Below, one piece after another: positions 140 through 51,150 of a stretch of 54,007 nucleotides of DNA; the stretch's first letter is position 1; each line of letters begins with the position of its first letter. Source of the DNA: Candidatus Portnoybacteria bacterium (lineage in GTDB: Bacteria > Patescibacteriota > Minisyncoccia > Portnoybacterales > GWB1-42-6); NCBI GenBank assembly GCA_016208745.1, contig JACQXN010000001.1, forward strand, positions 1 through 54,007, written 5' to 3'. The notes beneath the pieces are model-generated. The model was not told where the DNA came from and searched no databases. It worked only from the letters and a program-made list of their open reading frames with translations. A program made the translations under genes and the position numbers.

Positions 140-445
140 CTATTTTTTCCTGCCGCAAGAATCATCAACAACCTCACGGCATTTGCTTAAACGAATCAAA
201 GTTTCTTTATCGCCTTTTATTAAGGCTTTCTTTTTTGCGGCACACCATCCTTTGATTTGCTTTTCACGATTTTCCGCTTCTTTGCGTGTCGCAAAATTTT
301 CAGTATGGATTAATTCTAAATCAGAAAACTTTTTTGTATAAAATGACTCTTTATTTAAATGTTGGCGTAATCGTCTTTGTATATTATCGGTAATACCGAC
401 ATAAAAAGTTTTCTGATCGCAAAAAAGAATATAGAGAGTCCACAT
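140..445 (-). CDS. Small GIY-YIG domain nuclease (YhbQ/UPF0213-like)
   Basis: Motifs 'YILFCDQKTFYVGITDNIQRRLRQH..ENFATRKEAENREKQIKGW' (GIY-YIG, Arg, Glu, Asn). The track ORF 140..577 runs through tRNA-Asn, so the start was moved to the internal Met 'MWTLYIL' at 445. Confidence 0.75.
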   Translation of the reverse strand: MWTLYILFCDQKTFYVGITDNIQRRLRQHLNKESFYTKKFSDLELIHTENFATRKEAENREKQIKGWCAAKKKALIKGDKETLIRLSKCREVVDDSCGRKK

Positions 446-517
446 ATTAATTAAGCCCAGAGCAATTCGGCTGAGCTTGTCGTCGAAAGAAGGGCAAATG
501 CCCTGAGCTTGTCGAAG

Positions 518-591
<74 letters not shown>

Positions 592-1248
592 ATATATTTA
601 GTTTTTAATATTATCATCTAGCCACTTTCTTCCTTGGCCAGACTTCAAAAAATGTTCTCTTTTTATTGCTTCTGTTCAGGCTTAGCTATCTACCTGTCGG
701 CAGACAGGCGCCGGAATAATTTTAATAACAGCCTTGTTTTGGATTATAACCTATAAAATATCATTTTTCAAATATTTCCCTAACAAAAAATTCTAATACA
801 CCTTTATATTAGAATTTTTATCAGCTAAGTTTTCTAACAGGATTTTTAGCGCTTTGTTTTATTCTTGCTTGGTTCAAAAAATAATCTGCAATCATCCATC
901 TTCTTTAAGCATTTTTCCAGCGCCTCTCCGCTCAGCCTTGGACAGCAATCTTTTGAAGATTGCAGTTTCTTTATAAATTCCTTTGTTTTTGCTCCATTTT
1001 TATTCATAGCGATAGTCTGGGGAGGTAACTCCCCTTTTTCTATTATAGGGTGTTTTTTTATTTTGGCAAGCCCCATCAATATTATGCAGAAATCTATGGT
1101 TTGTTTCGTCTTTTATAGTGAGGGGTCAGAAGATGAAAACTTTATTGGTAACGCGTCTTTGACCCCTCCTGGGGCCCAATCTTTCTTTCGGAGCAAAGGT
1201 CGGGGGAAGGAAGAATATAAATAATTAAAAAAAAGGAGATATACTAAC

Positions 1249-4832: not shown

Positions 4833-4856
4833 GGTTGAGTTTGATGAATAATACTA

Positions 4857-4924
4857 AATCCTCCCCAGCCCTCCCTAAAGGAGGGAGTAATTCCCCTCCT
4901 TTAGGAGGGGTTAAGGGAGATTTT
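4857..4924. repeat. Family A double-hairpin mini-repeat (copy A1, intergenic)
   Basis: 'aatcctccccagCCCTCCCtaaaGGAGGGagtaattCCCCTCCtttaGGAGGGGttaagggagatttt'. Related copies at 33857-33924, 46184-46275, and halves at 26344-26380 and 26739-26780. Confidence 0.85.
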
Positions 4925-15432: not shown

Positions 15433-15451
15433 ATATTAATAAAATATTCGT

Positions 15452-15583
15452 ATTCTCCCTCCCCTCCTCAGATGAGGAGGGCTTCGGCCGTGAGCTCAGC
15501 CGAACGGGAATAAAAGGGGAGGTGTTGATTCTGAATTCAACACCCCACCTGAATCCTCCCCTCATCTGAGGGGAGGAGGAATT
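15452..15583. repeat. Family B MITE-like element (copy B1, intergenic) with ~22-bp terminal inverted repeats
   Basis: TIRs 'attctccctcccctcctcagatgagg' ... 'cctcatctgaggggaggaggaatt'. Internal hairpins 'ttcggccgtgagctcagccgaa' and 'gtgttgattctgaattcaacac'. Second copy at 38214-38310. Confidence 0.85.
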
Positions 15584-15590
15584 GGAATAA

Positions 15591-16427: not shown

Positions 16428-16488
16428 AACAATAGCATAGCACGACTTTTTGAATTGTGAAATCTAATCTCCCGAGTTTGGTCAATAA

Positions 16489-16726
16489 TGTCATTCCGGC
16501 CTTGCCTGCCCGCCGGTAGGCAGGGAATCCAGCCCCCTCTCTTAAGATAAGAGAGGGGTAGGGTGAGTTATGAATTAAAATTATAACTCCTCCCACCCTC
16601 CTCTTATATTAAGAGGAGGAGTAAATATGGATTTCCGCTGGAGTTTACCCCGTACTACGATACGGGGCGGGAGGTGGATTTATTCGTATGTGCGAAATTC
16701 GGATGAATTTTTCGCTATTCGGATAC
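16489..16726. repeat. Composite intergenic block of stacked palindromic mini-repeats
   Basis: Partial family C 'tgtcattccggcc..cagggaatcc'. Hairpins 'ccctctcttaagataagagaggg' and 'ctcctcttatattaagaggag'. 'ccccgtactacgatacggggcggg' module. Family D copy 16678-16726 'atttattcgtatgtgcgaaattcggatgaatttttcgctattcggatac'. Confidence 0.8.
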
Positions 16727-19894: not shown

Positions 19895-20296
19895 TCAGTT
19901 TCGTTCAATCTTATTAGCGATGCGGATCATTTGTTTTTCTAGCGATTCGGTCCTTCTCTCTATGCGTCTCAATTTCCTCTCTGGCTCCCCTAATTTCCGT
20001 TCCAATTTTCTCTGTTCGGATCTTATGGCGTTTAAAATTTTGCGTGGCTCGCGTTGGATTTCACGCTCAATTTTATTAATTTCCTGTTGCTTCTTTCTCT
20101 CAATGCGCTCTGGGGTTCTCTCGATCTGTCTGATAAAACGATTTCTATCATTGACTCTGCTCTCAATTTTATCTAAGCTATCCTCTAGCGAATCTAAAAA
20201 TCCTAAATCACTAACTGCGTCAGCTGATTTAATATTAAGTCCGTAAATTAAGAATAAAATACCAAGAATTATTAAGGTTAGTGAAAGATTTTTCAT
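19895..20296 (-). CDS. Secreted coiled-coil protein, Glu/Arg-rich (ERK repeats)
   Basis: Signal peptide, then 'IERKKQQEINKIEREIQREPRKI..RKLERKLGEPERKLRRIERR'. Confidence 0.65.
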   Translation of the reverse strand: MKNLSLTLIILGILFLIYGLNIKSADAVSDLGFLDSLEDSLDKIESRVNDRNRFIRQIERTPERIERKKQQEINKIEREIQREPRKILNAIRSEQRKLERKLGEPERKLRRIERRTESLEKQMIRIANKIERN

Positions 20297-20335
20297 AATA
20301 CCCCCCCCTTAATAAATAAGACGAATTGGCAATTG

Positions 20336-20375
20336 AAAAACCACGTTAACAACGGAATGTTTAGCGTGGTTTTTG
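20336..20375. terminator. Bidirectional terminator hairpin
   Basis: 'aaaaaccacg..cgtggttttt', flanked by an A-run and a T-run. Lies 3' of the radical-SAM operon. Confidence 0.7.
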
Positions 20376-20380
20376 AGGTA

Positions 20381-20440
20381 GAAATTGGCGGAAGGGGCGG
20401 GTATCCTTCGCTCGTCTAGGCGAGCTTCGGAATACCAATT
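20381..20440. repeat. attL-like direct repeat: degenerate partial copy of tRNA-Ser 3' end (left island boundary)
   Basis: 20382-20402 'aaattggcggaaggggcggg' versus 24383-24403 'aaattggcggaaggagcggg' (20/21 identical, same orientation). Downstream 'gctcgtctaggcgagc' and 'ggaatacc' resemble a decayed anticodon arm and variable arm. Confidence 0.7.
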
Positions 20441-20464
20441 CTTTCTTTGTTTTTTGCGCGCCGC

Positions 20465-22276
20465 CTAACTTTTATCCATTTCTGATTTTAATCTATTTTG
20501 ACTTAAAAACAAAACTTCATTATCGTTTCCATTTTTTCCAATCGCCTGCCAAGGTTGTGTTATATTTCCTTTTCTTCCCGTGTAAAAAACCAAAGAACAA
20601 TCCAGTCGTGGTTTTGTTTCGTTTATATTTTTTATATACCTTTTGTAAAAAGGAATATATTTTATAAAAAATGATCTTATGAAATCGTCAAAATCTCTGA
20701 AAATTTTTGATTCTTCTTCCACCACTCTGTAAATAATATAATCTTTTGCAGCTTCTCTGCTTCTTTCCAAAATTTTTTCTTCCGACTCCAAATCGTTTCC
20801 GAAAATATTTTTTCTGGCATTTAAAACCAACTTCTCAAAGTCCGGCTGATTACATATGTCTTTTCCAATATTTTCTTTAGTTTCTGATAAATGTTTTTCA
20901 AAATCGACTGAATATTTTTCGTAAAGTGTTGATATGGGGATTACCGAAAATAATCCGTTATATTTATCCGCAATGTTGGTCAAAGTTTGAACATATTTCT
21001 CCGTTTTTTCTTTTGGAATTTTATTTACATTTTGCACTCTTCCGTCTCCGGGCGAAACAAAAATTTTCAGACCCGGACTATAAATTTTTACGACTTCTAC
21101 ACTAATTCTTTGTAAATTTTCCAATGTTGCTTCCTCGCATAATTCGGCGTTATCAACCAGTAAATTTGGATTTTTGCAACCGCCCCAAAATTGAAAAAAT
21201 CTAATGGGCAGATTTTTAGAAACTTTTCTTTCTATTTTTTCCAAAACTAACTTTTTCACATCTTCGGGCGGTAACGCACCTGCTCTAAATTTTTTATTAG
21301 TCAAAATTTTATATATTTTCTCGGCCAATTCACTATTTTCTTTTTCTAAAAAATTCCGACTATGTTTATCTCTATCCCTTAACTTTATAAATTTTTCGGA
21401 GGTAATTAAATCGTATAAACTTTTATCTCTAATACTTCCTACTTCATCGGTAATATTTGCGTCAGTATGATAAACATTTCCGAAAATATCTATTTGAGCC
21501 ACAAATTTATACCGCCTTCGGTCAGCTCCAACAATCGGAGAGTCTGGAGTCCATTCATAGCCAAATTGTTTTTTATCAATTTCCGACAACTTTTTATACA
21601 AAACTTCTGTTTTTTCTTTTGGTAATTTCATTTCTTCCTTCGCTCGTCCAGTTATAGTTGCTATTTCAATCCAAGGGATTATTCCATTTTTTCGGCAAAA
21701 AATAAATAATTCGGGTATTTCTCGATAATTGTCCTCGCAAATAATGGAATTTAAAGCTAATCTTTTGTCTTTGGCGAATCCTATATCAACCAACATTTTT
21801 ATTTTTTCTAAAAATATTTTTTGCGCTCCTTTTAATCCGACTAATTTGTCATTTATTTCGGGATTGAAAGAATTCAGCTTAACCATTAAATTCACATCTC
21901 TTTCATTCAACCATTCCGCAAGTTCTTTGCTTAAAAGCAAGCTGTTTGTAAATAAAACTACTCTTAAATCCAGACTTTTTATAAAATCAATCAACTCTTT
22001 CAGGTTTCTATACAATAAAGGTTCCCCGCTTCCAGTTATGCTTACGACTTTTATTCCCAAATCTTTTGCTTGCTTAATGTTGTTTTTTATTTCATCTAAA
22101 GATAGTTTTGTTTTGTTGTTTTCTCTTTTTTCACTAATAAAGGGAGCATTACTTAGACAATAAACACACTTGAGATTACATTCCTCAATTACATGTATTC
22201 TTAATTCCAATAAAAGATTATTATTTTCAAAATCTTTTTCGGAAAAATCAATCGCTTTCAGAAATGGTGGTTTCAT
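20465..22276 (-). CDS. Radical SAM enzyme (MoaA/viperin-like CxxxCxxC core) fused to a ~300-aa C-terminal domain of unknown function
   Basis: 'IEECNLKCVYCLSNAPF' (Cx3Cx2C). 'VVSITGSGEPLL' SAM-binding GGE-like motif. No recognisable family in the C-terminal half. Very AT-rich gene. Confidence 0.8.
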   Translation of the reverse strand: MKPPFLKAIDFSEKDFENNNLLLELRIHVIEECNLKCVYCLSNAPFISEKRENNKTKLSLDEIKNNIKQAKDLGIKVVSITGSGEPLLYRNLKELIDFIKSLDLRVVLFTNSLLLSKELAEWLNERDVNLMVKLNSFNPEINDKLVGLKGAQKIFLEKIKMLVDIGFAKDKRLALNSIICEDNYREIPELFIFCRKNGIIPWIEIATITGRAKEEMKLPKEKTEVLYKKLSEIDKKQFGYEWTPDSPIVGADRRRYKFVAQIDIFGNVYHTDANITDEVGSIRDKSLYDLITSEKFIKLRDRDKHSRNFLEKENSELAEKIYKILTNKKFRAGALPPEDVKKLVLEKIERKVSKNLPIRFFQFWGGCKNPNLLVDNAELCEEATLENLQRISVEVVKIYSPGLKIFVSPGDGRVQNVNKIPKEKTEKYVQTLTNIADKYNGLFSVIPISTLYEKYSVDFEKHLSETKENIGKDICNQPDFEKLVLNARKNIFGNDLESEEKILERSREAAKDYIIYRVVEEESKIFRDFDDFIRSFFIKYIPFYKRYIKNINETKPRLDCSLVFYTGRKGNITQPWQAIGKNGNDNEVLFLSQNRLKSEMDKS

Positions 22277-22488
22277 AGTTTAATCAGTTCGTCCAGGGAA
22301 ATGTCTAAGGCCTTGGCGATTTTTGCCATAACAAAAACTGATGGCTTTTTAATTACTCCTGTTTCAACTTTAGTTAATGTCGTATAAGGAACATCTGCCT
22401 TTCTTGCAAAATCGTCTTGTGAAAGTTCCAGTTTTTGCCGAAGTGATTTTATTTTTTTCCCCAATTTATTGTCTTGACTACTTTCCAT
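22273..22488 (-). CDS. XRE-family helix-turn-helix transcriptional regulator
   Basis: 'KLGKKIKSLRQKLELSQDDFARKADVPYTTLTKVETG'. The stop overlaps the radical-SAM start by 4 nt. Confidence 0.85.
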   Translation of the reverse strand: MESSQDNKLGKKIKSLRQKLELSQDDFARKADVPYTTLTKVETGVIKKPSVFVMAKIAKALDISLDELIKL

Positions 22489-22865: not shown

Positions 22866-24482
22866 ATGACAAACGAAAATCAAACCAAGAAGTTTTTTAT
22901 CTACGCCCGCAAGTCAACAGACAGCGAAGACAGGCAAATTCGCAGTATTGCCGATCAACTTGCTGAATTGCGAGAGCTAGCGAGAAAAGAAAACATTGAT
23001 GTTGTTGATACTTTGGTAGAAAAGCAAACTGCGAAAAAGCCCGGACGGCCTGTCTTCGCTGAAATGTTAAAAAGAATTGAAGCGGGCGAAGCCGAGGGAA
23101 TTTTAGCGTGGCACCCCGATAGATTGGCGAGAAATTCCGTTGACGGCGGACAAATCATTTATCTTGTGGATACCGGAATAATCAAAGAGCTAAAATTCCC
23201 AACTTTTTGGTTTGATCCAACTCCGCAAGGCAAATTTATGCTTTCAATCGCTTTCGGGCAGTCAAAATACTACATTGATAATCTTTCGGAAAATATCAAA
23301 AGAGGACATCGGCAAAAATTGAAAAACGGTTTATGGCCTCAAATGGCTCCGCTTGGTTATCTCAACAACAAAGAGACAAAACAGATTTATGTGGACAAAG
23401 AAAAATCACAGCTTATTAAAAAGGCATTTGAGGCCTACGCGAGTGGAAAAAATACGCTTAAAGAAATCCGAAAGATTATCAATGATCTCGGCTTGAAAGG
23501 GCGGCGAGGTTCTTTGCTTTCTGTTTCCAATTATCAATATCTTTTACAAAATCCTTTTTACTATGGATTGATAAGGTATAACGGCGAATATTTTGAAGGA
23601 AAGCACGAACCGATTATTTCAAAGAAACTTTTTGACGAAACGCAAGAAGTGATGAAAAGAAAATCTAAACCACAAAAATCAGATGAGATGAAATTTTTTC
23701 TTTACAGAGGATTTTTCCGTTGCGGGGAATGTGGATTTACCATAACGGCGGATAAAAAGATAAAACCGAGCGGGAAAGAATACATCTACTATTACTGCAC
23801 CAAGAAAAATCCAAACCACATCTGCTCGCAAAATGTTTTTACCAGAGAAGAAAAAATTTCATCTCAAATCAACGAAGCCATACAAAAAGTCTCTTTGCCC
23901 GATGATTGGGCTGATAAAATGCTGAACGAATTAGAAAAAGAGAAAAACGAGAAAGCCCAATCATCTCGCTTTTTTGCTCAAAAAATTCAAGACGAAATAA
24001 AAACGATTGACGAAAAGCTGGAAAAACTGATGAACGCTTATCTTGAAAACGCCTTAAACCTTGCCGAATATCGGGAAGCCAAAAACAAACTCGTCAATCA
24101 AAAACAGCTTTTGAAAGACAAACTGACAGCTTTTGAGCAAAAAAGCAATAATCGGTTCGAACTCGCCGCCAAATTCATAAACTCCGTAAAACAAGCCGAA
24201 ATTATCGCTTTGCAAGAAAATCCCGAACAGGGTCGGGATTTTCTAAAAAAGATTGGTTCGAACTTCCGTTTGAGCGGGCAGAAATTGTTTTTGGATTTCA
24301 AAAATCCCTTCAAAATCCTCACGGAAGCCGAGCCCCGCCTCTGGCGGGGCGAGGCAACAATCGCCCAAAAGTCGCAATCTGAAAATTGGCGGAAGGAGCG
24401 GGATTCGAACCCGCGATACCTTGCGGTATACTCGCTTTCCAAGCGAGCGCACTCGGCCTCTATGCGACCCTTCCTGAATTAG
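22866..24482 (+). CDS. Large serine recombinase (resolvase catalytic domain + recombinase domain + zinc ribbon)
   Basis: Catalytic 'FFIYARKSTDSEDRQ' (Ser nucleophile), 'GILAWHPDRLARN'. Zinc ribbon 'FFRCGECGF..YYYCTKK'. The last ~32 codons run antisense through tRNA-Ser, so the true stop may be earlier or the overlap is real. Confidence 0.85.
   Translation: MTNENQTKKFFIYARKSTDSEDRQIRSIADQLAELRELARKENIDVVDTLVEKQTAKKPGRPVFAEMLKRIEAGEAEGILAWHPDRLARNSVDGGQIIYLVDTGIIKELKFPTFWFDPTPQGKFMLSIAFGQSKYYIDNLSENIKRGHRQKLKNGLWPQMAPLGYLNNKETKQIYVDKEKSQLIKKAFEAYASGKNTLKEIRKIINDLGLKGRRGSLLSVSNYQYLLQNPFYYGLIRYNGEYFEGKHEPIISKKLFDETQEVMKRKSKPQKSDEMKFFLYRGFFRCGECGFTITADKKIKPSGKEYIYYYCTKKNPNHICSQNVFTREEKISSQINEAIQKVSLPDDWADKMLNELEKEKNEKAQSSRFFAQKIQDEIKTIDEKLEKLMNAYLENALNLAEYREAKNKLVNQKQLLKDKLTAFEQKSNNRFELAAKFINSVKQAEIIALQENPEQGRDFLKKIGSNFRLSGQKLFLDFKNPFKILTEAEPRLWRGEATIAQKSQSENWRKERDSNPRYLAVYSLSKRAHSASMRPFLN
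24387..24474 (-). tRNA. tRNA-Ser (anticodon GGA), type II with long variable arm, CCA encoded
   Basis: Acceptor GGAAGGG/TCCTTCC. Anticodon stem CTCGC/GCGAG with loop TTGGAAA. Variable arm ATACC-GCAA-GGTAT. T-arm GCGGGTTCGAATCCCGC. Ends GCCA. Confidence 0.85.
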
Positions 24483-24729
24483 AAAATAGGTATTTTATTC
24501 TTTCCCTTCCCTTCCCCGTTTTTAAAAACCTTTCTTCCTTTAACGAATCTCTTTTTAATGTGAACGCTTCATAATATACTAATAACCAAGGAATGCCTTT
24601 TGATGTATAGGGTGATTTACCATTATTGTGATAAATTAACCGCTGGCGAAGATCATTGGTGCTACCGATATATCTTTTATTTAATTTTTTACTAAATAAA
24701 ATATAGACGTAATACATAATTCTGTACAC
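24460..24729 (-). CDS. Small GIY-YIG domain nuclease (second copy of the family)
   Basis: 'YYVYILFSKKLNKRYIGSTNDLRQRLIYHN..WLLVYYEAFTLKRDSLKEERFLKTGKGR'. The 3' end overlaps the tRNA-Ser 5' end by ~12 nt. Confidence 0.7.
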   Translation of the reverse strand: MYRIMYYVYILFSKKLNKRYIGSTNDLRQRLIYHNNGKSPYTSKGIPWLLVYYEAFTLKRDSLKEERFLKTGKGRERIKYLFSNSGRVA

Positions 24730-24778
24730 CCCCGCCCGAGGTGTGATCGGCCTCCCCGCCCGAGGCGGGTGCGCCTTG

Positions 24779-24798
24779 GGCGCATATGCGACCCTTCC
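24779..24798. repeat. Partial duplicate of tRNA-Ser 5' end
   Basis: 'ggcgcatatgcgacccttcct' versus the tRNA 5' region 24455-24476 'ggcctctatgcgacccttcct'. Flanks the GIY-YIG gene on the side opposite the intact tRNA. Confidence 0.6.
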
Positions 24799-24802
24799 TA
24801 AT

Positions 24803-24826
24803 TTGTCGCTGCCGGACAGCGACAGA
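24803..24826. terminator. Conserved palindromic hairpin (REP/terminator-like), one of two identical copies
   Basis: 'ttgtcgctgccggacagcgacag'. Near-identical 'ttgtcgctgtccgacagcgacag' at 37186-37208. Both copies sit at convergent gene ends. Confidence 0.65.
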
Positions 24827-24834
24827 GTGTTTAA

Positions 24835-26343: not shown

Positions 26344-26380
26344 AGCTCCCTCCTTTTTAAAGGAGGGGTGGGGTGGATTT
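26344..26380. repeat. Family A half-element (hairpin-2 half) flanking the DUF559 gene
   Basis: 'ctccctcctttttaaaggaggggtggggtggattt' matches the second half of A1. Confidence 0.7.
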
Positions 26381-26385
26381 ATATT

Positions 26386-26736
26386 TTAAATCTCATTGCG
26401 TATTTTCTCAACAACGTTATCTATATTTCTCAGGACGTCCAGATTGGTGAATCGTAATATCCGTAATCCTAAATTTTTCAAATACAAGTCTCTTTTTCTG
26501 TCCGCAACTATATTTTTTGTTTCGTAATGTTGTCCGCCGTCAATTTCAATAACTAATTTTGCTCTATCACAATAGAAATCAACAATATAATTATCTATTG
26601 GCTTTTGTCTGTTGAATAAACAATCCTTGATTTGCCTTTTTCTTATCTTTGACCAAAGTAACTTTTCGGCGTCAGTCAACCTCGACCTCAAGTCTCTACT
26701 TTTCGATTTTAGATAAGACACGTATCTTAAAGGCAT
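26386..26736 (-). CDS. DUF559 endonuclease-domain protein (Vsr/restriction-endonuclease-like fold)
   Basis: 'EKLLWSKIRKRQ..FNRQKPIDNYIVDFYCDRAKLVIEIDGGQHYE..DRKRDLYLKNLGLRILRF'. Confidence 0.75.
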   Translation of the reverse strand: MPLRYVSYLKSKSRDLRSRLTDAEKLLWSKIRKRQIKDCLFNRQKPIDNYIVDFYCDRAKLVIEIDGGQHYETKNIVADRKRDLYLKNLGLRILRFTNLDVLRNIDNVVEKIRNEI

Positions 26737-26738
26737 AA

Positions 26739-26780
26739 ATCCCTCCTAGCCTCCCTTTAAAAAGGGAGGGAAAAAATTTA
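26739..26780. repeat. Family A half-element (hairpin-1 half) flanking the DUF559 gene
   Basis: 'aatccctcctagcctccctttaaaaagggaggga' matches the first half of A1. Confidence 0.7.
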
Positions 26781-33723: not shown

Positions 33724-33856
33724 AAATTCCCCTCCCATTTTTGGTGTTTTTAAAAAACTAACTAGATAAGAAATTGTAGCAGATTTTAAGAAAAAATTAA
33801 AGGGCCCGGGATAGATGGGCCTCTTTTTAAATCCGTCAAAATGGTTATGATAGCAA

Positions 33857-33924
33857 AATCCCTCCCAGCCTCCCCTAAAGGGGAGGGGCCGTTTCCCTCC
33901 TTTAGGAGGGATTAAGGGAGATTT
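33857..33924. repeat. Family A double-hairpin repeat (copy A2), just 3' of groEL
   Basis: 'aaatccctcccagcctcccctaaaggggaggggccgtttccctcctttaggagggattaagggagattt'. Confidence 0.85.
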
Positions 33925-36533: not shown

Positions 36534-37148
36534 ATGAAAAAGATTACAGATCGCGCAAGAGAAAAAATGCTTTTGTTTTTTTCTATCGCCTTGGCCATTC
36601 TTATAGCGTTATTCATATTTGATATGGCAACTTCAGCCGCCTTGGCCGGAGACAGGCATCATGGCGGTTATCACAGCAGAAGTGGTCAGCGAAGTTATAG
36701 CGGCGGGTACCATAGTGGGTTCAGCAACAGAAACCGCAGCGGGTATCATAACCTTAGCAACAGATACCACAGCAGTTACCGCAACTATAGCGGCAGCAGG
36801 TACTATAGCGGCCATAGCAACAGATATTATGGCGGGTACAACAACCGATACCATGGTGGTTACCATAGATACGGCGGTTACGGCTATTATTCACATCGTC
36901 ACATCAATGGCGATTTCTGGTGGGGCCTAGGCGCTGGATTGCTGGCTGGACCTTTGCTTGGCGGATGGACAAGCCCGGGTTACGGCTATTACGGCGGCGG
37001 ATATAATTATTACCCCCAACGACATTACGGCTATTCGCCGTACCGTTCCGGCGGCTACGATGGGTACAGCAGAAGCTACAACCGCATCTGGGTCGCTCCT
37101 TTCTGGAACGGCTGGGAATGGGTTCCCGGCCACTGGGAATACTATTGA
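36534..37148 (+). CDS. Exported low-complexity Gly/Tyr/Ser/Arg/His-rich protein
   Basis: AAGGAGG RBS and N-terminal TM/signal. Repeats such as 'GGYHS', 'NRYHGGYHRYGGYGYY', 'SPGYGYYGGGYNYY'. Trp-rich C-terminus 'WVAPFWNGWEWVPGHWEYY'. Confidence 0.7.
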   Translation: MKKITDRAREKMLLFFSIALAILIALFIFDMATSAALAGDRHHGGYHSRSGQRSYSGGYHSGFSNRNRSGYHNLSNRYHSSYRNYSGSRYYSGHSNRYYGGYNNRYHGGYHRYGGYGYYSHRHINGDFWWGLGAGLLAGPLLGGWTSPGYGYYGGGYNYYPQRHYGYSPYRSGGYDGYSRSYNRIWVAPFWNGWEWVPGHWEYY

Positions 37149-37185
37149 ATTTAATTCCCGCTCAAGTAATTGGGCGGGATTTTAA

Positions 37186-37208
37186 TTTGTCGCTGTCCGA
37201 CAGCGACA
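37186..37208. terminator. Second copy of the conserved hairpin 'ttgtcgctgNccgacagcgacag' between convergent genes
   Basis: Near-identical to 24803-24826. Confidence 0.65.
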
Positions 37209-37214
37209 GGATAT

Positions 37215-40154
37215 TTATTTCAAGTATTTCCCGGTATAACTTTTTTTATTCTTGACTATATCTTTGATTTTCCCCTCTACCACAATATATCCTCCTTCAT
37301 CCCCGCCTTCTGGGCCTAAATCAATAATCCAGTCGGCGGTTTTTATTACTTCGGGATTATGCTCAATCACCAAAACCGTATTGCCGCGCGAAACCAGCGC
37401 GTGTAAAACGCTTAATAACTTATTAATATCGTCAAAATGCAAACCAGTTGTTGGCTCATCTAAAATATAAAGAGTCCGGCCGGTTGCGCGGCGGGCAAGT
37501 TCTGTGGCTAATTTTATTCTTTGTGCTTCGCCGCCAGAAAGCGTTGTGGCTGGCTGGCCAAGCTTCATATAACCCAAGCCAACTTGATTCAATGTTTCTA
37601 ATCGCTGACGAATTGCCGGAATATTTTTAAAAAATTTATTTGCCTCTTCAATAGACATTGCCAAAACATCAGCAATATTTTTTCCTTTAAATTCTATTTC
37701 CAGCGCTTCTTTGTTGTATCGCTTGCCATGGCATTCCTCACATTCCACATAAACATCGGGTAAAAAATACATTTCTATTTTTTTAGAACCATCGCCCTGA
37801 CAAGCTTCGCATCGGCCACCCTTGACATTGAAGCTAAAACGGCCTGCCTGATATCCGCGCAAGCGCGATTCCTGCGTTTGGGCAAATAAATCGCGGATAT
37901 ATGTAAAAACGCCGGTATAGGTTGCGGGATTTGAACGGGGCGTTCGGCCAATTGGCGATTGGTCAACAATAATTACTTTGTCTATGTTTTCTTTGCCTAA
38001 AATTTCTTTGTACGCGCCAGGCTCTTCATGCGCGCCATAAAATTCTTTGCTCAAAGCCGCGCCCAAAATATCGTTTATTAATGTGCTTTTTCCAGAACCC
38101 GAAACACCGGTTACGCAAACAAATTTTTCCAAAGGAATTTTAGCGTTAATGTTTTTTAGATTATGTTCGGTGGCGCTTTTAATTTCAAGATACGAATCTT
38201 TTGTTGTCTTTGATTCATTCCTCCCCTCCTCAGTTGAGGAGGGGTCGGGGGAGGTGGTGTTCAGCACCCCTCCTTTTATTCCTTCCCTTATCTGAGGGGA
38301 GGAGGAATTTTTATTTATGACAATTTTACGGCGACCACTCAAATAATCCGCCGTCAGCGTATGCGCGGATTTTAATTGGCTGGGCGTTCCTTGAAATATA
38401 ACTTTGCCGCCGTTTTCGCCAGCAGCAGGCCCTATATCAATTAACCAGTCAGCTGATTTCATTGTTTGCTCGTCATGTTCAACAACAATGACTGTATTTC
38501 CTAAATCGCGCAGTTTTTTTAGCGTTTCAATCAAGCGGCTCATATCTCTTTGGTGCAAACCAATAGACGGCTCATCTAAAATATAGACAACGCCCGAAAG
38601 CCCCGAGCCAATTTGCGTAGCCAGACGAATCCTTTGACCTTCTCCGCCAGATAAAGTTGTGGCTGATCGTTCAATGGTTAAATATTCCAAGCCAACATCA
38701 ATTAAAAACTGCAATCGCGCCAAAATTTCTTTTATGATGCTGTTTGCGATTTTTGATTCATTAACGCTTAATTTTAGTTTACGAAAAAAATCTACTGCTT
38801 TTTCAACGCTCATTTCAGATATCTGATTTATCGCAATCCCGTTTATTTTCACAGCCAAAGCCTCTGGTTTCAATCTTTTTCCAAGACAAGTCGGACATTT
38901 TTTAATCAACATATATTTTTCAATTTCTGCCCGCGAAAAATCAGATTCTGTTTCTTTCCAGCGCCTTTGTAAATTTGGAATCACGCCTTCAAATTTATTG
39001 TCTCCGTATAAAATCCTGTCGATGTCGGACGTCGACAGATTCTTAACCGAGGTATTCATTGAAAAATGATGACGCTTAGCGACCTCTGATAATTGCCAAT
39101 AATACCAGCCTTGCCGGCCAACCCGATGAGATGCTGTGGCCCAAGGTCTGATTGCGCCTTCAGCCAATGTTAAATTAGGATTTGGGATAACGAGCTTTGG
39201 ATCAATTTCCAGTTTTGTGCCCAGGCCCTGACAATCAGGGCAAGCGCCATAAGGGCTGTTGAAAGAAAAAATTCTTGGCGCGATTTCTGGCAAACTAATG
39301 CCGCATTTTTCGCAAGCGAAGAGTTCGGAAAAAATTAAATCCGAATCGCTTACCGCCAACCGCCTACCGCCTACCGCCTTCTTTGTATTTTCTTTTTTCT
39401 GGCTGTAGTCGGTAGTCGGTAGTCGATTGACTATTATAACTCCTTGCCCCAATTTCAACGCCGTTTCCACAGAATCAGCAATCCGCGCGCGAAATTCAGG
39501 ATCCTTTTTTTCTTCCAAAGACAACCTATCAACCACTACCTCCACATCATGCTTCTTCTGTTTGTCTAATTTTAATTCCATTGCTTCATCAACCCGATGC
39601 ACAACGCCGTCAACTCTAACGCGCACAAACCCGGCTTTTAAAATCTGCTCTAAAACTCCCTGATGCTCACCTTTGCGGCCGCGAACCATTGGCCCGAGAA
39701 CCATAATCTGGCTGTCTTTCGGCAATTCAAGGATTTTTTCAACAATTTGACTGGCGCTTTGTCTTTTTATCAGTTGGCCGCATTGCGGGCAATATGGCTT
39801 GCCGATTCTGGCAAATAAAAGACGGAGATAATCATATACCTCCGTTATTGTGCCTAAAGTTGAGCGCGGATTGCGCGAAACGCTTTTTTGGTCAATAGCA
39901 ATCGCAGGCGAAAGCCCTTCAATTTTATCAACATCCGGTTTATCCATCACGCCCAAAAACTGCCGCGCATAAGCAGATAAACTTTCAACATAGCGGCGCT
40001 GGCCTTCAGCGTAAATTGTATCAAACGCCAAAGAAGATTTTCCCGAACCCGAAAGACCGGTTATTACAACCAGTTTATTTTTAGGGATATCCAAGTCTAT
40101 ATTTTTTAAGTTGTGGACTCGAGCGCCCCTAATTTTTATAAAATCTTGCAGCAT
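37215..40154 (-). CDS. uvrA: Excinuclease ABC subunit A (UvrA), carrying two in-frame mini-repeat insertions
   Basis: Two ABC ATPase modules: '[23 protein letters not shown]', '[13 protein letters not shown]', LSGGE signatures. Zinc fingers '[15 protein letters not shown]'. 979 aa. Confidence 0.95.
38214..38310. repeat. Family B element copy B2 inserted in-frame in uvrA inter-domain linker
   Basis: 'attcattcctcccctcctcagttgaggagggg..tatctgaggggaggaggaatt'. Encodes '..[27 protein letters not shown]..' between the 'YLSGRRKI' and '[14 protein letters not shown]' segments, which are near-contiguous in other UvrA proteins. Confidence 0.8.
39348..39425. repeat. Inverted tandem 'taccgcc' repeat element inserted in-frame in uvrA
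   Basis: 'cgcttaccgccaaccgcctaccgcctaccgcc' ... 'ggctgtagtcggtagtcggtagtcg'. Encodes '[20 protein letters not shown]', an extra ~20 aa just before zinc-finger '[13 protein letters not shown]'. Confidence 0.7.
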
Positions 40155-40274
40155 AGAAAAAATTTAAACATTTCAAACATTGATTATACATTATTTTTTA
40201 AAGTCCGGCAAGACAATGCTAGCGAAAAAACAAAAAAGCGGCTTAGAAAAACCAAGCCGCTATATTAAAATGCG

Positions 40275-40745
40275 CTAAACTATTTCTTCAAATAACAAAT
40301 CCCCCATATCGTTATAGGGAGCGTAAAAAAGCTGAACTTCTGCTTCCGGTAAAATTTTATTCAGCTCCTGTCGAGCTATTTTTAGATCGTTAACCTGCTT
40401 GCCTTTCAAGAAATCTCCGGTCGCCTTTTCTTTATGAATGCTTTCATACCAAGAACATCCAGCTTCTGCGATGCAGATAACCCTTTTTATTTTGTGGGCT
40501 GTAATTAAGAATAAACAGCGCTCGGTATCTGTCATCTTAAATTTATACTGCATACCGCCAGCCGCAAAAAACTGGGCTCCTCCGGGCACCGCGAATCTGT
40601 CAAACGACGCGATTCCCAAATCATGCAAAATAAAATCGTCGATCTGCTGCTGCCGGAGATGGTTGCTGCAATGAATAATCAACGCCGGAGGCACTTCTTG
40701 TCCGCAACATTTAACTAAATTTTCAAAACATATGCCTTCTGTCAT
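40275..40745 (-). CDS. Hypothetical protein
   Basis: Start placed at the internal Met (MTEGICF), which has an AAGGAGG RBS. No family recognised. Confidence 0.6.
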   Translation of the reverse strand: MTEGICFENLVKCCGQEVPPALIIHCSNHLRQQQIDDFILHDLGIASFDRFAVPGGAQFFAAGGMQYKFKMTDTERCLFLITAHKIKRVICIAEAGCSWYESIHKEKATGDFLKGKQVNDLKIARQELNKILPEAEVQLFYAPYNDMGDLLFEEIV

Positions 40746-40759
40746 TCTTATCCTCCTTT

Positions 40760-41767
40760 TTATCCGCAATCGGGACAAAATCCATCTTTATCTAATTCGT
40801 CTGCGCATTCATGGCAATAAGCATTTTCATCTTCGCAATCTGGATTGGCGCAGCGGATAAGCCGGGAGCTTGTAGCAGGACTACCACAAGAAGAACAATC
40901 AGTTTCTTCTTCGCCTGAACAGTCAGAACAAAAGCCAGTCTCATTTAACAACCGGTTGGCACAATCCTTGCAATAATCATCATCTCTCGGGCAACCAGGA
41001 TTAGCGCAACGGATTTCTGTGTCTCTATCAATAAGCTCTTGACAATTTCCTCCATCGCAATAGAACGTAGCGCAGTCTTCGCAATATCCGCGCTCGCTCA
41101 ACCCATCTTTGCACTCTTCACAAAAAGCGATTTCGCAATGATCAAAGCTTCTGCATTTAAAAGCTCTTGATTCAATGACTCCTTCTCTACAATCAGAACA
41201 CTGAATCGTATCTTCCTTGCTACAAACCATACACTTTCCTTTATCATCAACATGCTGGCAGAAAGAAATTTTCTGGCTCTCTTTCTCACATTCTTTTTTT
41301 TCTTCCTCAGGGACACTTTTTTTAGGTTCATCGAGAGCTTCTTTTTCAAGATATACTCCCTTTAAGCATTCTTCAAAATCATGGCCACAATAAGGACAAC
41401 TTTCTGGAATTTTTGGCGCAACCGGTTCTTGAACTAGCTGTGGATCTCTTGAAATATCAGGAATACTTGCAAGGGTCATTTTCGTATCGTTCGCAAGCGA
41501 GGCAGTAAATATGACTGCCAATTCCTCTTTGCTTATGTATCCTGGTACGATTCTTTCGTTAACAAGCCGTCGATAATTTTCTTTACCCTCTTCGATGGTT
41601 TTTATAAGACTATCTGCCGGAATTCTTGAAAGGAGCAGGCAAACTATAAATTCCATCGGCGAATAGGGCGAACCTGGTAATTCAAGCTTTTTCCAATCAG
41701 CCTTTATCTGCGGCCAAATTGACAAACCTTCTTTAACCTCAAACGAAATAACATCTTTCAAATCCAT
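40760..41767 (-). CDS. Cysteine-rich modular protein (repeated 'RCANPxCxxxxxYCxxCAxxLxxxGFCxDC' modules)
   Basis: More than 40 Cys, arranged in repeated CxxC-containing modules in the C-terminal two-thirds. Confidence 0.65.
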   Translation of the reverse strand: MDLKDVISFEVKEGLSIWPQIKADWKKLELPGSPYSPMEFIVCLLLSRIPADSLIKTIEEGKENYRRLVNERIVPGYISKEELAVIFTASLANDTKMTLASIPDISRDPQLVQEPVAPKIPESCPYCGHDFEECLKGVYLEKEALDEPKKSVPEEEKKECEKESQKISFCQHVDDKGKCMVCSKEDTIQCSDCREGVIESRAFKCRSFDHCEIAFCEECKDGLSERGYCEDCATFYCDGGNCQELIDRDTEIRCANPGCPRDDDYCKDCANRLLNETGFCSDCSGEEETDCSSCGSPATSSRLIRCANPDCEDENAYCHECADELDKDGFCPDCG

Positions 41768-43843: not shown

Positions 43844-44581
43844 TTATTCTGTTGGTCTGCCGTTTGCAGAAAAAATTTCTTGCAAGACGGGTTTGCGTTT
43901 TACGACAAATCTGTCTTCCTTTTGAGAAAAAAACAATAAAATTATCTCGCTTGCTTCGGGGATTATGTCTTCTTCTGGTTCTGTGCGGCAATAAACATTA
44001 TGGATAGTGCCGCAATCATCCGATACTGTTGCGCGCCCCGAAGAAGAATCAATATTAACCGAAGCTATTCCGATTTTCCCAACTAAGGATTCCGGTCCGA
44101 TGGCAGACGTGCCTTTCTTTGGCATTATTTTTGCCACTCTTAATGACACGAACCGCGTGAAAGAAAAAGCAAAAAATGTTGCAATGCTAAGTGAGAACCA
44201 GAAATATAGAATTGGGGGAAAGAAAAATCCAACAAAGATTGAATTACTGACTAATCCAATAAAACCCCAGGAAATTCCAAATACCATAAGCACAATACCT
44301 AAAGGACATTTTCCAATGCCCATAAAGTTAAAAATGCTTTGGATTATTCCTTCTTGAGCATGTCCAATGTCATGATCTGTATCGTGGTCATGATCGTGAT
44401 CATAACTATGGCCGAGGTCTATGTCGTGATCGTGATCAAAATCATGATCGTGCTCAGCCGAGATATCAGCGCCAGAACCGCTTGGGTGCATAAGCTCAAA
44501 AAGAAGATAAAAAAACCAAGCAACAATAGCAGCGAAAAAAACAGCATTATACCAATCATAAATCAAAGAGTGCAAAGACAT
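43844..44581 (-). CDS. NfeD-like membrane protein (YqiJ-type flotillin partner) with His/Asp-rich tract
   Basis: Start at the internal Met, which has a GGAGGTG RBS. 'HDHDFDHDHDIDLGHSYDHDHDHDTDHD' tract. C-terminal OB-fold 'GKIGIASVNIDSSSGRATVSD..HNVYCRTEPEEDI'. Confidence 0.8.
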   Translation of the reverse strand: MSLHSLIYDWYNAVFFAAIVAWFFYLLFELMHPSGSGADISAEHDHDFDHDHDIDLGHSYDHDHDHDTDHDIGHAQEGIIQSIFNFMGIGKCPLGIVLMVFGISWGFIGLVSNSIFVGFFFPPILYFWFSLSIATFFAFSFTRFVSLRVAKIMPKKGTSAIGPESLVGKIGIASVNIDSSSGRATVSDDCGTIHNVYCRTEPEEDIIPEASEIILLFFSQKEDRFVVKRKPVLQEIFSANGRPTE

Positions 44582-44612
44582 TCTTTCACCTCCTTCCTGA
44601 CAAAAAATATTT

Positions 44613-45431
44613 CTATTCTTTCTTCTCGGTTTTCGGCGCGGCGACAAAAACTTTCTGATCAGACAACAATCCGCCAATTGGCGGACTCGAAAGCAACTTT
44701 AGCGCTTTCGTTGCCGGATCTTCTGGGGCGATGATTTCCGCATCTATAACCCCGCCTTCAATTGCCGCCCGCTCTTTCAGTTTTTTGTATGCTTCCTGAA
44801 AAGCGGCCTTTTTCATTACCTGACCCACCTCTTCATCAAGGCCAAGCGATGTGGAGTCTTTGATTAAGTTCTGAGCCATCAACTTTGCAGTTGAAAGATC
44901 AATGGAATCAGCCAGGCTTTTGTAGGTTTGCTTGCCCTCGATTTGGGCTAGGGCATCACCTTCAAGCTTTCTAGCTTTTTCCACCATGGAATTTAGCTCC
45001 AGCTGCAAAACCCGTCTTGGTAAGTCTTTCGACGCTTCTTCGGCCGCCGCGAATTGCTTCCGTGCTTCCGCTACAAGCGTCTGAGCATTTTTATCCGCGA
45101 CTTCATATTGTTCGGTCGCAGAATCAATCTTTTCGCCTATGGCGAGCTTGAGCGCAAGTATTCTTTGCGCCTCTCCGCTGTTTCCCGCTTTCTCAGCAAC
45201 AAGAGCGAGACGATTTAATTCCTGATGTTGGGTTACCAATTTTTGCAGTTCTTTTCTCTGAACTGTGACGGAAATAACTGCCGCTGTCGCGGCCTCCCCT
45301 CTTGCGTTTGCCAGCTCAATGTCCAGTCTGACCGCTTCCTGTAATCTCTGAGTGGTTGTTTTTGAAGTTTCTGCTTCCTGCTCTCCTAAGAGAACGCCTA
45401 CCACTTCTTTAAGTTTCGCAATGAGTCCCAT
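44613..45431 (-). CDS. PspA/IM30 (Vipp1) family protein
   Basis: Start at the internal Met 'MGLIAKLKEVV', which has an AGGAGG RBS. Coiled coil 'LDIELANARGEAATAAV..LQLELNSMVEKARKLEGDALAQIEGK'. Confidence 0.8.
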   Translation of the reverse strand: MGLIAKLKEVVGVLLGEQEAETSKTTTQRLQEAVRLDIELANARGEAATAAVISVTVQRKELQKLVTQHQELNRLALVAEKAGNSGEAQRILALKLAIGEKIDSATEQYEVADKNAQTLVAEARKQFAAAEEASKDLPRRVLQLELNSMVEKARKLEGDALAQIEGKQTYKSLADSIDLSTAKLMAQNLIKDSTSLGLDEEVGQVMKKAAFQEAYKKLKERAAIEGGVIDAEIIAPEDPATKALKLLSSPPIGGLLSDQKVFVAAPKTEKKE

Positions 45432-45819: not shown

Positions 45820-47079
45820 GTGAAAAATAATCCTATTGGAAAACTCAAAAAACTGCCACAAAAACCGGGCGTATATACGTTAAAAGATAAGGCCGGCCGG
45901 CTGATTTATATTGGCAAAGCGATAAATCTGCGAAATCGCGTAAGATCGCATTTTTCTAGAACAAGTATTTTTTATAAAAATGACTTAGCTAATATTGTCG
46001 CTGATATCGACTGGATTGAAACAAAAAATGAGAAGCAAGCATTGCTTTTAGAAAACGAGCTGATAAAAAAATATCAGCCTCGCTACAATATTCAATGGCG
46101 TGATGATAAAAGTTATTTCTGGGTAAGATTTACGAATGACGAATGGCCAAGGGTGATAGTGGCGCATAAAGGTAGTCTAATAAATTCTCCCCAGCCCTCC
46201 CCCGTATCAAGTACGGGGCGGGCTCTAAAGGGAGGGAGTGATTCCCCTCCTTTAGGAGGGGTTAGGGGAGATTTTATCGGTCCTTTTGTCTCTGGCCGCG
46301 AATTGCGAAAAACTTTGCGAGCCTTAAGAAAAATATTTCCTTTTCGCACTTGCAAAAATTCCTATGATAAGCCCTGCTTGCAATGGCACTTGGGATTATG
46401 TCCGGCACATAAACCGCATTATCATTCCCGTGAAAGCGGGAATCTAGAAGATAAAAAATCTGGATTCCGGGTCAAGCCCGGAATGACAAAAGAGAGTCAG
46501 ATAGATAAATACCTAAACTCTCTCGTCGCCCTCTCTCAATTCCTCCGTCTCTACGCCGGCGAAAAAATTCGCATTGAGGCTTATGATATTTCTAATATTC
46601 AAGGGAATTACGCGACTGGATCAATGATTGTTTTTTATGGAAACAAACCATCAAAATCAGACTATCGTAGATTTAAGATAAAAACGATAAAAGGCGCAAA
46701 TGATGTGGCAATGATAAAAGAAGTTTTAAAACGCCGCCTCGGACACCCCGAATGGCCCTATCCGGATTTGATTTTGATTGACGGCGGCCTTGCGCAGCTT
46801 AATGCCGCGGTCTCGTCTATTAGCAAGCAACTACCATCCACCGCTATTATAGCGCTTGCGAAACAACAAGAAGAAATTTATACTGAATATAGTAGTAAGC
46901 CTCTTAAAGTTAATCCGTTGCCTGAGTCATTTAGATTAACTTTTCAGCATATCAGAGATGAGGCTCATAGATTTGCTATTTTTTATTATCGCTACCTTCA
47001 TGCGACAAGAGACTTTAGAAGAACTAGAAAAAAAGTTACAAAAACGCGCTTTGGCGCGGCAAAAGAAAAAGAAACCTAA
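45820..47079 (+). CDS. uvrC: UvrC-like excinuclease subunit (GIY-YIG + Cys motif + RNase-H-like endonuclease domain; lacks UvrBC and HhH regions), carrying two in-frame mini-repeat insertions
   Basis: GIY-YIG 'GVYTLKDKAGRLIYIGKAINLRNRVRSHF'. 'FPFRTCKNSYDKPCLQWHLGLC'. 'IEAYDISNIQGNYATGSMIVF..ILIDGG'. 419 aa. Confidence 0.8.
   Translation: MKNNPIGKLKKLPQKPGVYTLKDKAGRLIYIGKAINLRNRVRSHFSRTSIFYKNDLANIVADIDWIETKNEKQALLLENELIKKYQPRYNIQWRDDKSYFWVRFTNDEWPRVIVAHKGSLINSPQPSPVSSTGRALKGGSDSPPLGGVRGDFIGPFVSGRELRKTLRALRKIFPFRTCKNSYDKPCLQWHLGLCPAHKPHYHSRESGNLEDKKSGFRVKPGMTKESQIDKYLNSLVALSQFLRLYAGEKIRIEAYDISNIQGNYATGSMIVFYGNKPSKSDYRRFKIKTIKGANDVAMIKEVLKRRLGHPEWPYPDLILIDGGLAQLNAAVSSISKQLPSTAIIALAKQQEEIYTEYSSKPLKVNPLPESFRLTFQHIRDEAHRFAIFYYRYLHATRDFRRTRKKVTKTRFGAAKEKET
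46184..46275. repeat. Family A element copy A3 (with an extra 'ccccgtatcaagtacggggcggg' module) inserted in-frame in uvrC
   Basis: 'attctccccagccctcccccgtatcaagtacggggcgggctctaaagggagggagtgattcccctcctttaggaggggttaggggagatttt'. Encodes 'SPQPSPVSSTGRALKGGSDSPPLGGVRGDF' between the GIY-YIG domain and the Cys motif. Confidence 0.8.
46421..46488. repeat. Family C element copy C2 inserted in-frame in uvrC
   Basis: 'atcattcccgtgaaagcgggaatctagaag..tctggattccgggtcaagcccggaatgaca'. Encodes 'HYHSRESGNLEDKKSGFRVKPGMTKES'. Confidence 0.75.
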
Positions 47080-51024: not shown

Positions 51025-51150
51025 AAATCCAAATTCCAAAATCCAAATTATTCCAAATCAAATCCAAAGCTCAAAATCCAAAATAATTAATTTAGTCATT
51101 TGGATTTGGGATTTGATTTGACATTTGAAATTTGGATTTTGAAATTATTC
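51017..51150. repeat. ~130-bp imperfect palindrome built from 'aaatccaaa'/'tttggattt' oligo repeats
   Basis: Left arm rich in 'aaatccaaa', right arm in 'tttggattt', centred on 'taattaatttag'. Intergenic between the SBP and PGI genes. Confidence 0.7.

Follow-up and report, generated by a model that had tools for sequence, protein, structure and literature searches.

Stop-free hairpin repeats within uvrA and uvrC of a Portnoybacteria genome and a candidate nuclease partner of one repeat family

Rickettsia palindromic elements are dispersed palindromes that lie both between genes and in frame within unrelated housekeeping genes (Ogata et al. 2000, 2002; PMC10969869). Repetitive extragenic palindromic (REP) sequences are imperfect palindromes of 20-40 nt with a GTAG or CGTC head (PMC3733652). 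Here we describe dispersed hairpin repeats in a 54,007-nt stretch of DNA from Candidatus Portnoybacteria, a member of the candidate phyla radiation or Patescibacteria (contig JACQXN010000001.1, GC content ~39%; hereafter, the window), where the nucleotide excision repair genes uvrA and uvrC each contain two stop-free, hairpin-forming inserts of ~20-32 codons. How did such repeats come to lie within conserved proteins? The explanation that we favor, with a probability of roughly 0.78, is that the inserts are dispersed modular hairpin repeats that selection has left only in open frames and permissive loops and that behave like Rickettsia palindromic elements, with a nuclease of the DUF559 family as the likeliest spreader of one repeat family, family A. 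The analogy with Rickettsia had already been drawn in a sequence-only reading of the window; it is apt for behavior (PMC10969869).

The inserts of uvrA and uvrC

The window UvrA (Table 1), which has 100% identity with a UvrA that NCBI records for Portnoybacteria, matches solved UvrA proteins over its full length (2r6f, E = 0; 3pih; 9gxk) and has the attributes of a class I UvrA, namely two ABC ATPase halves, Walker and signature motifs, zinc modules, and the UvrB-binding and insertion (DNA-binding) domains. Invariant UvrA residues were taken from an alignment of 32 homologues that included the window protein. UvrC departs from the canonical architecture, its Pfam matches comprising GIY-YIG and UvrC_RNaseH only, without UVR or HhH domains, and this short architecture is common to all of its nearest relatives. 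The UvrC homologues of the clade (P0121-P0240) are a short form of ~330-450 aa that lacks both the C-terminal (HhH)2 and UVR, the domain that binds UvrB; UVR is back in more distant relatives, from P0207 onward. Both genes had been called essential in the sequence-only reading, and on this point we differ: excision-repair genes are non-essential in most bacteria.

Two structured repeats lie in frame in each gene, as had been proposed, and both open reading frames (ORFs) run through them intact. All six elements tested fold far more stably than their shuffled counterparts (z = -3.4 to -6.7), and none of 200 shuffles reached the same stability. In the mRNA sense, the linker insert of uvrA, B2, forms one long hairpin (-48 kcal/mol, z = -4.15, 0/200 shuffles as stable) and the first insert of uvrC, A3, forms another of about -50 kcal/mol. 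The intergenic copies A1 and B1 each form a single long hairpin as well, and the heptamer insert of uvrA folds with z = -3.4. A sliding fold scan of the whole window recovers the same elements along with more intergenic palindrome clusters. Each element is free of stops in just one or two of its six frames, one of which is the frame used by the host gene. Terminal inverted repeats are present in family A (AAATCCTCCCC...GGGGAGATTT) and family B (ATTCCTCCCC...GGGGAGGAGGAAT). No element was assigned a family by Rfam, whether the gathering threshold or E ≤ 1 was applied, and its sub-threshold matches were generic hairpins only (e.g., miRNA precursors). A sub-threshold whalefall-1 match on A1 (4858-4913, minus strand; 20.9 bits, cut-off 37) is probably due to chance.

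Families A, B, and C each occur between genes as well as within them, and the elements measure 68-141 nt. A3 shares 45 nt with A1 (95.6% identity, E = 3e-16) and 30 nt with A2, and C2 shares 33 nt with C1 (93.9%, E = 4e-9). When B2 was searched against the 54 kb of the window, two terminal blocks in common with B1 were found, one of 24 nt (95.8%, E = 4.7e-6) and one of 30 nt (93.3%, E = 3e-7). The intergenic counterparts had been called exact; they are related but inexact, because only the terminal modules are conserved, at 93-96% identity, and the interiors differ. A counterpart had also been claimed for the 'taccgcc' heptamer insert, whose two arrays (39347-39379 and 39405-39425) are built of CGCCTAC x4.7 and GTAGTCG x3.0 (Tandem Repeats Finder); no second copy of it was found in the 54-kb window.

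Where do the inserts fall in the proteins? The phmmer alignment with Geobacillus UvrA (2r6f) is broken into three blocks precisely at the two UvrA inserts. Residues 243-268 correspond to residues 255-257 of the 2r6f chain, which leaves ~24 extra residues where the UvrB-binding domain ends, and residues 615-653 correspond to residues 620-627, which leaves ~31 extra residues in the linker between the ATPases. Part of the B2 peptide as originally given, 'SKTTKDS', belongs to the flanking linker. In the AlphaFold model of UvrA (mean predicted local distance difference test score, pLDDT, of 74), residues 248-270 and 617-651 have a pLDDT below 50 and no secondary structure. In that of UvrC (mean pLDDT 79), the score falls below 50 at residues 129-149, 201-208, and 212-215, corresponding to the A3 and C2 inserts; solved homologues of UvrC cover its two end domains only. 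The alignment gaps and the models support the earlier proposal that the inserts would add Gly/Ser/Pro/charged residues in loops, and these positions are permissive. Both UvrC inserts had been assigned to the segment between the GIY-YIG domain and the Cys motif, which stands for A3, but C2 follows the motif (C194-P-A-H). One predicted tryptic peptide that spans insert sequence in UvrC is GGSDSPPLGGVR. A relative, L108, carries a third A-like insert (NSPQPPLILRGG) inside the GIY-YIG domain of its UvrC (P0124), and the inserts are therefore not limited to interdomain linkers.

Table 1. Positions in the window of the repair genes, the repeats, and the DUF559 cassette
Feature	Positions	Strand or location	Description
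uvrA	37215-40154	minus	979 aa, intact, continuous ORF; Pfam UvrA_inter, UvrA_DNA-bind, ABC_tran; hosts two in-frame inserts
B2	38214-38310	minus	double-hairpin repeat in the linker between the UvrA ATPase halves, aa ~616-648; encodes a 32-residue peptide
Heptamer ('taccgcc') insert	39340-39425	minus	inverted pair of period-7 arrays, UvrA aa ~244-270, where the UvrB-binding domain ends
uvrC	45820-47079	plus	419 aa, short; GIY-YIG, Cys motif, RNase H-like endonuclease domain
A3	46184-46277	plus	family A doublet (L-half + R-half), in frame at UvrC aa ~122-152
C2	46421-46491	plus	family C, hairpins tcattcccg..cgggaat and attccggg..cccggaatgac; UvrC aa ~198-228
A1	4856-4923	intergenic	family A doublet between convergent genes
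A2	33856-33924	intergenic	family A doublet just downstream of groEL
B1	15450-15590	intergenic	family B copy between co-oriented aminotransferase and hydrolase genes; -76 kcal/mol, z = -6.7
C1	33401-33511	intergenic	family C copy
dnaG array	7371-7428	minus	in-frame period-7 repeat, 20-residue peptide; possible fifth case, weak
Inverted period-7 array pair	51025-51146	intergenic	same design as the uvrA heptamer insert; units related to the dnaG array
DUF559 gene	26386-26736	minus	116 aa, Vsr-like PD-(D/E)xK fold; PF04480, E = 2e-35; candidate partner of family A
Upstream A-type half-module	26737-26770	minus	abuts the DUF559 start; 19 nt at 95% to A2
Downstream A-type half-module	26350-26382	minus	directly after the DUF559 stop; inverted repeat of the upstream module

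Reuse of the sites among relatives and copies in other genes

Alignments were made of 32 UvrA and 33 UvrC homologues from the same clade (49-80% identity). All four sites are strongly length-variable, with zero to ~45 extra residues across the aligned homologues, and insert-free relatives have a UvrA of 919-926 aa and a UvrC of 327-363 aa. Among ~30 relatives per site, the sites are either empty or filled by one of at least five palindromic DNA families. Family C is read in two frames ('VIPAKAGIQ…SRVKPGMT' and 'HSRESGN…KPGMT'), family A yields 'NPPQPSLKGG..SPPLGGVRGDF', and the further insert peptides are 'HPERSEGSPANAGRHKVGDSSASGLRMT', 'VIARSEATKQS…/…APRND', and the heptamer-type 'KSQIPNSK'. 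Period-7 peptides of the last type fill UvrA hot spots of P0008, P0040, and P0043, and P0003 carries a heptamer insert at the same UvrA site that appears homologous to that of the window. In neighbor-joining trees built with the insert columns excluded, the insert types are scattered among empty sites. The four sites are recurrent hot spots that are reused by different families across lineages.

In L110, the closest relative for which a contig is available, UvrA is 79% identical and the gene order is the same. Neither of its uvrC sites is occupied, its UvrA linker holds an unrelated palindrome of -46 kcal/mol, and its 19.6 kb contain no copies of families A, B, or C. The inserts are therefore lineage-specific, as the sequence-only reading had held. 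In another relative, L106 (UvrA 70% identical), both UvrA sites are filled by hairpins of family C, which match C2 over 25-28 nt at 93-96% identity, and the nested mini-hairpin of A3 (ccccgtatcaggtacgggg) is present as well. The empty uvrC site of L109 and the filled site of the window are too divergent for a nucleotide-level insertion point. Orthologue segments of equivalent length had been named as evidence that would count against the idea of insertion. Segments of similar length do exist, but they belong to different palindromic families, and the finding is therefore extended to recurrent colonization and not refuted.

Are the inserts peculiar to excision repair? One genome per species was scanned with the 29-nt right half of family A, and 26 exact copies were detected in at least nine Patescibacteria genomes, the 29-mer being letter-perfect across genomes separated at species level. 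In other genomes, four unrelated proteins contain family A in frame: one of 722 aa, one of 761 aa that reads the element on the opposite strand, a Mur ligase-like protein, and an O-antigen-ligase-like membrane protein in which a family C insert is present too. Copies within genes use only the two stop-free frames of family A, 'NPPQPSLKGG…' or 'KSPLTPPKGG…'. In the window, the dnaG array adds ~10 aa relative to the Aquifex primase (2au3) and matches the intergenic segment 51028-51052 at just E = 0.044. Much had been made of all four inserts lying in nucleotide excision repair genes; this emphasis is unsupported, because family A occurs in the four unrelated proteins and an in-frame array occurs in dnaG. 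A search of protein databases with the concatenated B2 and A peptides gave no candidate sharing three 5-residue words. Period-7 arrays, often in inverted pairs (dnaG, 51025-51146, and uvrA 39347-39425), constitute a separate structural class of repeats.

Family A modules and the DUF559 gene

Family A is a doublet of half-modules, and solo halves are common. Each half-module is a C-run/G-run hairpin with a short tail, the L-half reading AAATCCTCCCCAGCCCTCC-loop-GGAGGG and the R-half CCCCTCC-TTTA-GGAGGGG-TTAGGGGAGATTT, and modules end in AAATC(C/T)CCCC, AATTCCTCC, or GTCATTCC. Modules combine and nest, with 16 distinct inverted doublets across loci and a nested mini-hairpin within A3. This mini-hairpin, CCCCGTA-n(3-6)-TACGGGG, measures 19-23 nt and is nested in family A and C elements of several genomes (window 46200-46218, in A3, and 16648-16670; L106 10802; L023 6284; L024 1010). 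Further very stable palindrome clusters, down to -76 kcal/mol, lie at 16486-16630, 2046-2140, 24711-24830, 37106-37225, and 1-170; these intergenic clusters are built of like modules, including a gtcattcc…ggaatcc hairpin, and the one at 2046-2140 is a near-perfect 20-bp stem.

What might spread family A? The sole gene in the window that shares modules with the repeats encodes a small DUF559 protein, and there the modules face the opposite way. The nearest structure to this protein is 3hrl (E = 6e-20), an uncharacterized 'endonuclease-like protein', and the superfamily group to which DUF559 belongs includes Vsr and a homing endonuclease (PMC3424549). The tail of the upstream half-module, GGAGGGATTT, adjoins the DUF559 ATG and resembles a ribosome-binding site. 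The order R-half, DUF559, L-half is found at five loci, namely the window and four of the 26 genome matches to the 29-mer.

Relatives of the window DUF559 were collected at 80 metagenomic loci, 71 of which have enough flank for analysis. Inverted-repeat flanks scoring at least 14 bracket DUF559 at 50 of these 71 loci (70%) versus 1.3% of 150 other ORFs from the same loci, and the mean flank score is 17.2 versus 7.0 in shuffles. The flanking inverted repeat of DUF559 is the family A half-module, a hairpin followed by the GGGGAGATTT tail. A common order (C-run stem, A/T loop, G-run stem, 2-4 nt, G-run-ATT(T/A), 0-20 nt, ATG) describes 58 of 63 distinct upstream flanks, and both tails are present at 44 of 63 loci. 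Flank similarity follows DUF559 protein similarity (Spearman 0.55, 0/500 permutations as high). REP-associated tyrosine transposases (RAYTs) were first linked to REP sequences by the same kind of evidence (PMC3116915). Covariation in the upstream hairpin is modest, with six pairs of which four have compensatory changes, and says little because the stems are mostly C-G runs.

Tail-to-tail doublets without the gene occur in eight cases, and the GGGGAGATTT|AAATCTCCCC junction would, with the gene removed, be a perfect palindrome. Two cassettes on separate contigs of one genome bin (L003 7395-7661 and L020, bin KR13_N2.mb.37) are 95.5% identical and have unrelated upstream DNA; they share an in-frame TAA at codon 89, beyond which conserved sequence continues in frame, and represent either a duplicated pseudogene or a case of read-through. 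Among the scanned window ORFs of at least 80 aa (the largest ORFs, with overlapping shadow ORFs skipped), there is no Y1_Tnp, DDE, or other transposase. A search of the window for gene partners of families B and C found none, the small ORFs near C1 and the repeat cluster at 16.4-17.7 kb being uninformative. Viral contigs scanned for families A and B gave 0 matches and 1 irrelevant match, and there is no sign of phage carriage of either family. A literature search of incomplete coverage returned nothing linking DUF559 to repeats and no report of such elements in Patescibacteria. Tentatively, and with the odds against it, we entertain the idea that DUF559 might be the nuclease of an unrecognized class of palindromic mobile elements, akin to REPINs (REP doublets forming hairpins), whose modules would repeatedly remodel conserved proteins; small GIY-YIG nucleases may offer a parallel.

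A small stand-alone GIY-YIG gene (140-447, minus strand) lies beside tRNA-Asn (517-592, minus strand) and is flanked by palindromes of the 'ccttcgacaagctcagg' type. Three more small GIY-YIG genes from Patescibacteria (L003, L006, and L010) are flanked by palindromes or inverted repeats. These may constitute a second pairing of nuclease and palindrome, like that of DUF559 and family A.

Elsewhere in the window, a large serine recombinase with Resolvase, Recombinase, and Zn-ribbon domains (22866-24482, plus strand) overlaps tRNA-Ser(gga) (24387-24474, minus strand) at its 3' end. Beside it is a low-GC stretch (0.32-0.34; 20000-22300) that encodes a radical-SAM/DIT1-like fusion protein, and together the two may be an integrated island. 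A His/Asp-rich coding repeat (44367-44456) lies in a YqiJ-like membrane protein (ORF 43844-44677, minus strand), and repeats of ~33 nt (36719-36863) lie in a Gly/Tyr-rich ORF without a Pfam match (36534-37148, plus strand). A sub-threshold Rfam L20_leader match (40224-40351, minus strand; 35 bits, cut-off 58.7) upstream of ORF 40275-40778 is probably a chance one.

Competing explanations and known systems

In the explanation that we favor, copies of short GC-rich double-hairpin repeats, which are built of half-modules and are abundant both in this genome and in Patescibacteria relatives, would arise genome-wide. Those within genes would survive where their length is a multiple of three, a frame is free of stops, and the receiving loop or linker tolerates ~20-45 extra disordered residues. 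In UvrA the tolerant loops would be the end of the UvrB-binding domain and the inter-ATPase linker, and in UvrC they would lie on either side of the Cys motif. From lineage to lineage, different families would have entered, left, and re-entered these loops. The inserts would be translated as coils of Gly, Pro, Ser, and charged residues, probably neutral or nearly so for repair. Family A would be spread most likely by the DUF559 endonuclease, in parallel to the RAYT genes bracketed by REP sequences.

Several points weigh against this explanation. In their conserved domains, the uvrC genes of the window and L108 have a nucleotide identity of 67-76%, versus 93% over the family A insert that both carry at one shared site, which misfits simple neutral decay and needs recent re-insertion, gene conversion, or constraint by selection or a sequence-reading protein. 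Family B, to which the insert first flagged (B2) belongs, is known from just two copies, lacks a partner gene, and turned up nowhere else. No consistent target-site duplication was seen by eye in the flanks of ~15 full copies. The dispersed family A doublet runs L-half then R-half with tails outward, whereas the DUF559 cassette runs R-half, gene, L-half with tails inward. Simple deletion within the cassette therefore does not yield the doublet, which resembles what a circular or tandem cassette would have at its junction. The DUF559 flanks could be expression signals, a 5' hairpin with a ribosome-binding site and a 3' hairpin, and not substrates, and the correlation of flanks with protein could reflect shared host ancestry. 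Lastly, we infer from the DNA both the translation of the inserts and their movement and mode of spread.

Might the inserts be kept for a use, either as UvrA or UvrC linkers that set UvrA-UvrB or UvrC interdomain geometry or as mRNA hairpins that regulate translation? Nearly all UvrA proteins of the Portnoybacteria clade have ~30-45 extra linker residues, conserved in length but not in sequence, and the A insert is better conserved than the uvrC around it, both of which fit such exaptation. Yet there are relatives free of inserts, unrelated families occupy a single site, the inserts are predicted to be disordered, and the same element recurs in unrelated proteins, and we consider exaptation unlikely. 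An origin in place, with low-complexity sequence expanding through slippage or through duplication driven by hairpins, is best suited to the uvrA heptamer and dnaG arrays, which are period-7 tandems without a convincing second copy in the window; tandems grow by slippage. B2, A3, and C2, however, share long and specific terminal modules with intergenic copies and copies in other genomes, and even the homologous-looking heptamer of P0003 fits one inherited event followed by local change, so that local origin is quite improbable for the inserts as a set.

Hairpin stability in the mRNA is very high (-26.8 to -54 kcal/mol), and in the candidate phyla radiation rRNA genes are noted for carrying intervening sequences. 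Could the inserts then be removed from the product, by translational bypassing as with the GC-rich 'byp' palindromes of yeast mitochondria or by excision of the RNase III type as with rRNA intervening sequences? In-gene copies are all stop-free and frame-keeping, and the frames used, here and in the four genes elsewhere, are the one or two that are open; skipping is disfavored because a constraint to open frames would be pointless for a skipped segment. Cutting of the mRNA would, moreover, part the two halves of each protein, and we hold removal in either form to be very improbable. That a repeat was mis-joined into a gene is a natural suspicion for a metagenome-assembled genome, in which repeats are classic break points, but each coding sequence runs unbroken, in a single frame, across both borders of every insert. 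The same pattern is found at all four sites in dozens of independent assemblies (JGI, ENA, NCBI, and Logan), and because of this recurrence we reject an assembly artefact as scarcely credible. Dispersed hairpin repeats that persist in open frames and permissive loops remain our preferred explanation.

How do these repeats compare with known systems? With REPINs and RAYTs they share a short imperfect palindrome as the unit, inverted doublets that form a long hairpin, singlets, a small nuclease-type gene that is bracketed, and elements that insert beside or into each other (PMC3116915); in the ~15 flanks read by eye, no consistent target-site duplication was seen. They differ in that the GTAG/CGTC head is absent and that the bracketed gene is DUF559, of PD-(D/E)xK type with a Vsr-like fold, and not a Y1 HUH transposase; the elements thus fall outside the REP/RAYT group by two of its defining features, head and Y1 transposase. 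REPs are also by definition extragenic, while these elements are often intragenic. Bacterial miniature inverted-repeat transposable elements (Correia/NEMIS, ERIC, and Nezha) are likewise small, with terminal inverted repeats, hairpins, and occasional in-frame genic copies (PMC10969869, PMC2759123); here, by contrast, the same ~15 flanks show no consistent target-site duplication, and no parent insertion sequence with a DDE transposase was found in the window. Vsr-fold homing endonucleases (I-Bth0305I, 3r3p) belong to the same superfamily as DUF559, whose gene sits amid a would-be palindrome with gene-less junctions in existence. Unlike those systems, there is no intron or intein, and the putative 'site' is itself a multicopy repeat. 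The small dispersed repeats of cyanobacteria reportedly include hairpins of 19-27 nt nested in repeats and genes, like ccccgtatcaagtacgggg, in other hosts and with other sequences. The double-hairpin architecture is shared with the double-hairpin elements or GC clusters of fungal mitochondria, again with other hosts and sequences.

The repeats bear on how these genomes are read. Repeats may account for much of the variation in length among conserved proteins of these bacteria, many of their small 'hypothetical proteins' are likely translated repeats, and insert segments should be masked in annotation and phylogenomic alignments. The link to DUF559 provides a testable function for a large uncharacterized family and possibly a second class of enzyme, besides the RAYTs, that maintains REP-like repeats.

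In-frame colonization of housekeeping proteins by selfish palindromes has previously rested largely on Rickettsia. The Portnoybacteria repeats resemble Rickettsia palindromic elements in their size of ~70-150 nt, their in-frame placement at positions tolerated by the fold, their family-specific peptides, and the presence of several families per genome. The likeness drawn here is one of behavior, the hosts being Patescibacteria in the one case and an alpha-proteobacterium in the other. Half-modules and nested mini-hairpins, sites reused by different families, and the link of one family to a nuclease set the present elements apart. Different families in the same orthologous loops, which Rickettsia does not offer, amount to a natural experiment on insertion tolerance and turnover. 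What is gained over the known cases is the recurrent reuse of loops across a clade, a modular nested architecture, and a strong statistical association of family A with DUF559. This suggests that the process described from Rickettsia is also at work, and on a large scale, in the candidate phyla radiation, an unrelated and very large second group with reduced genomes.

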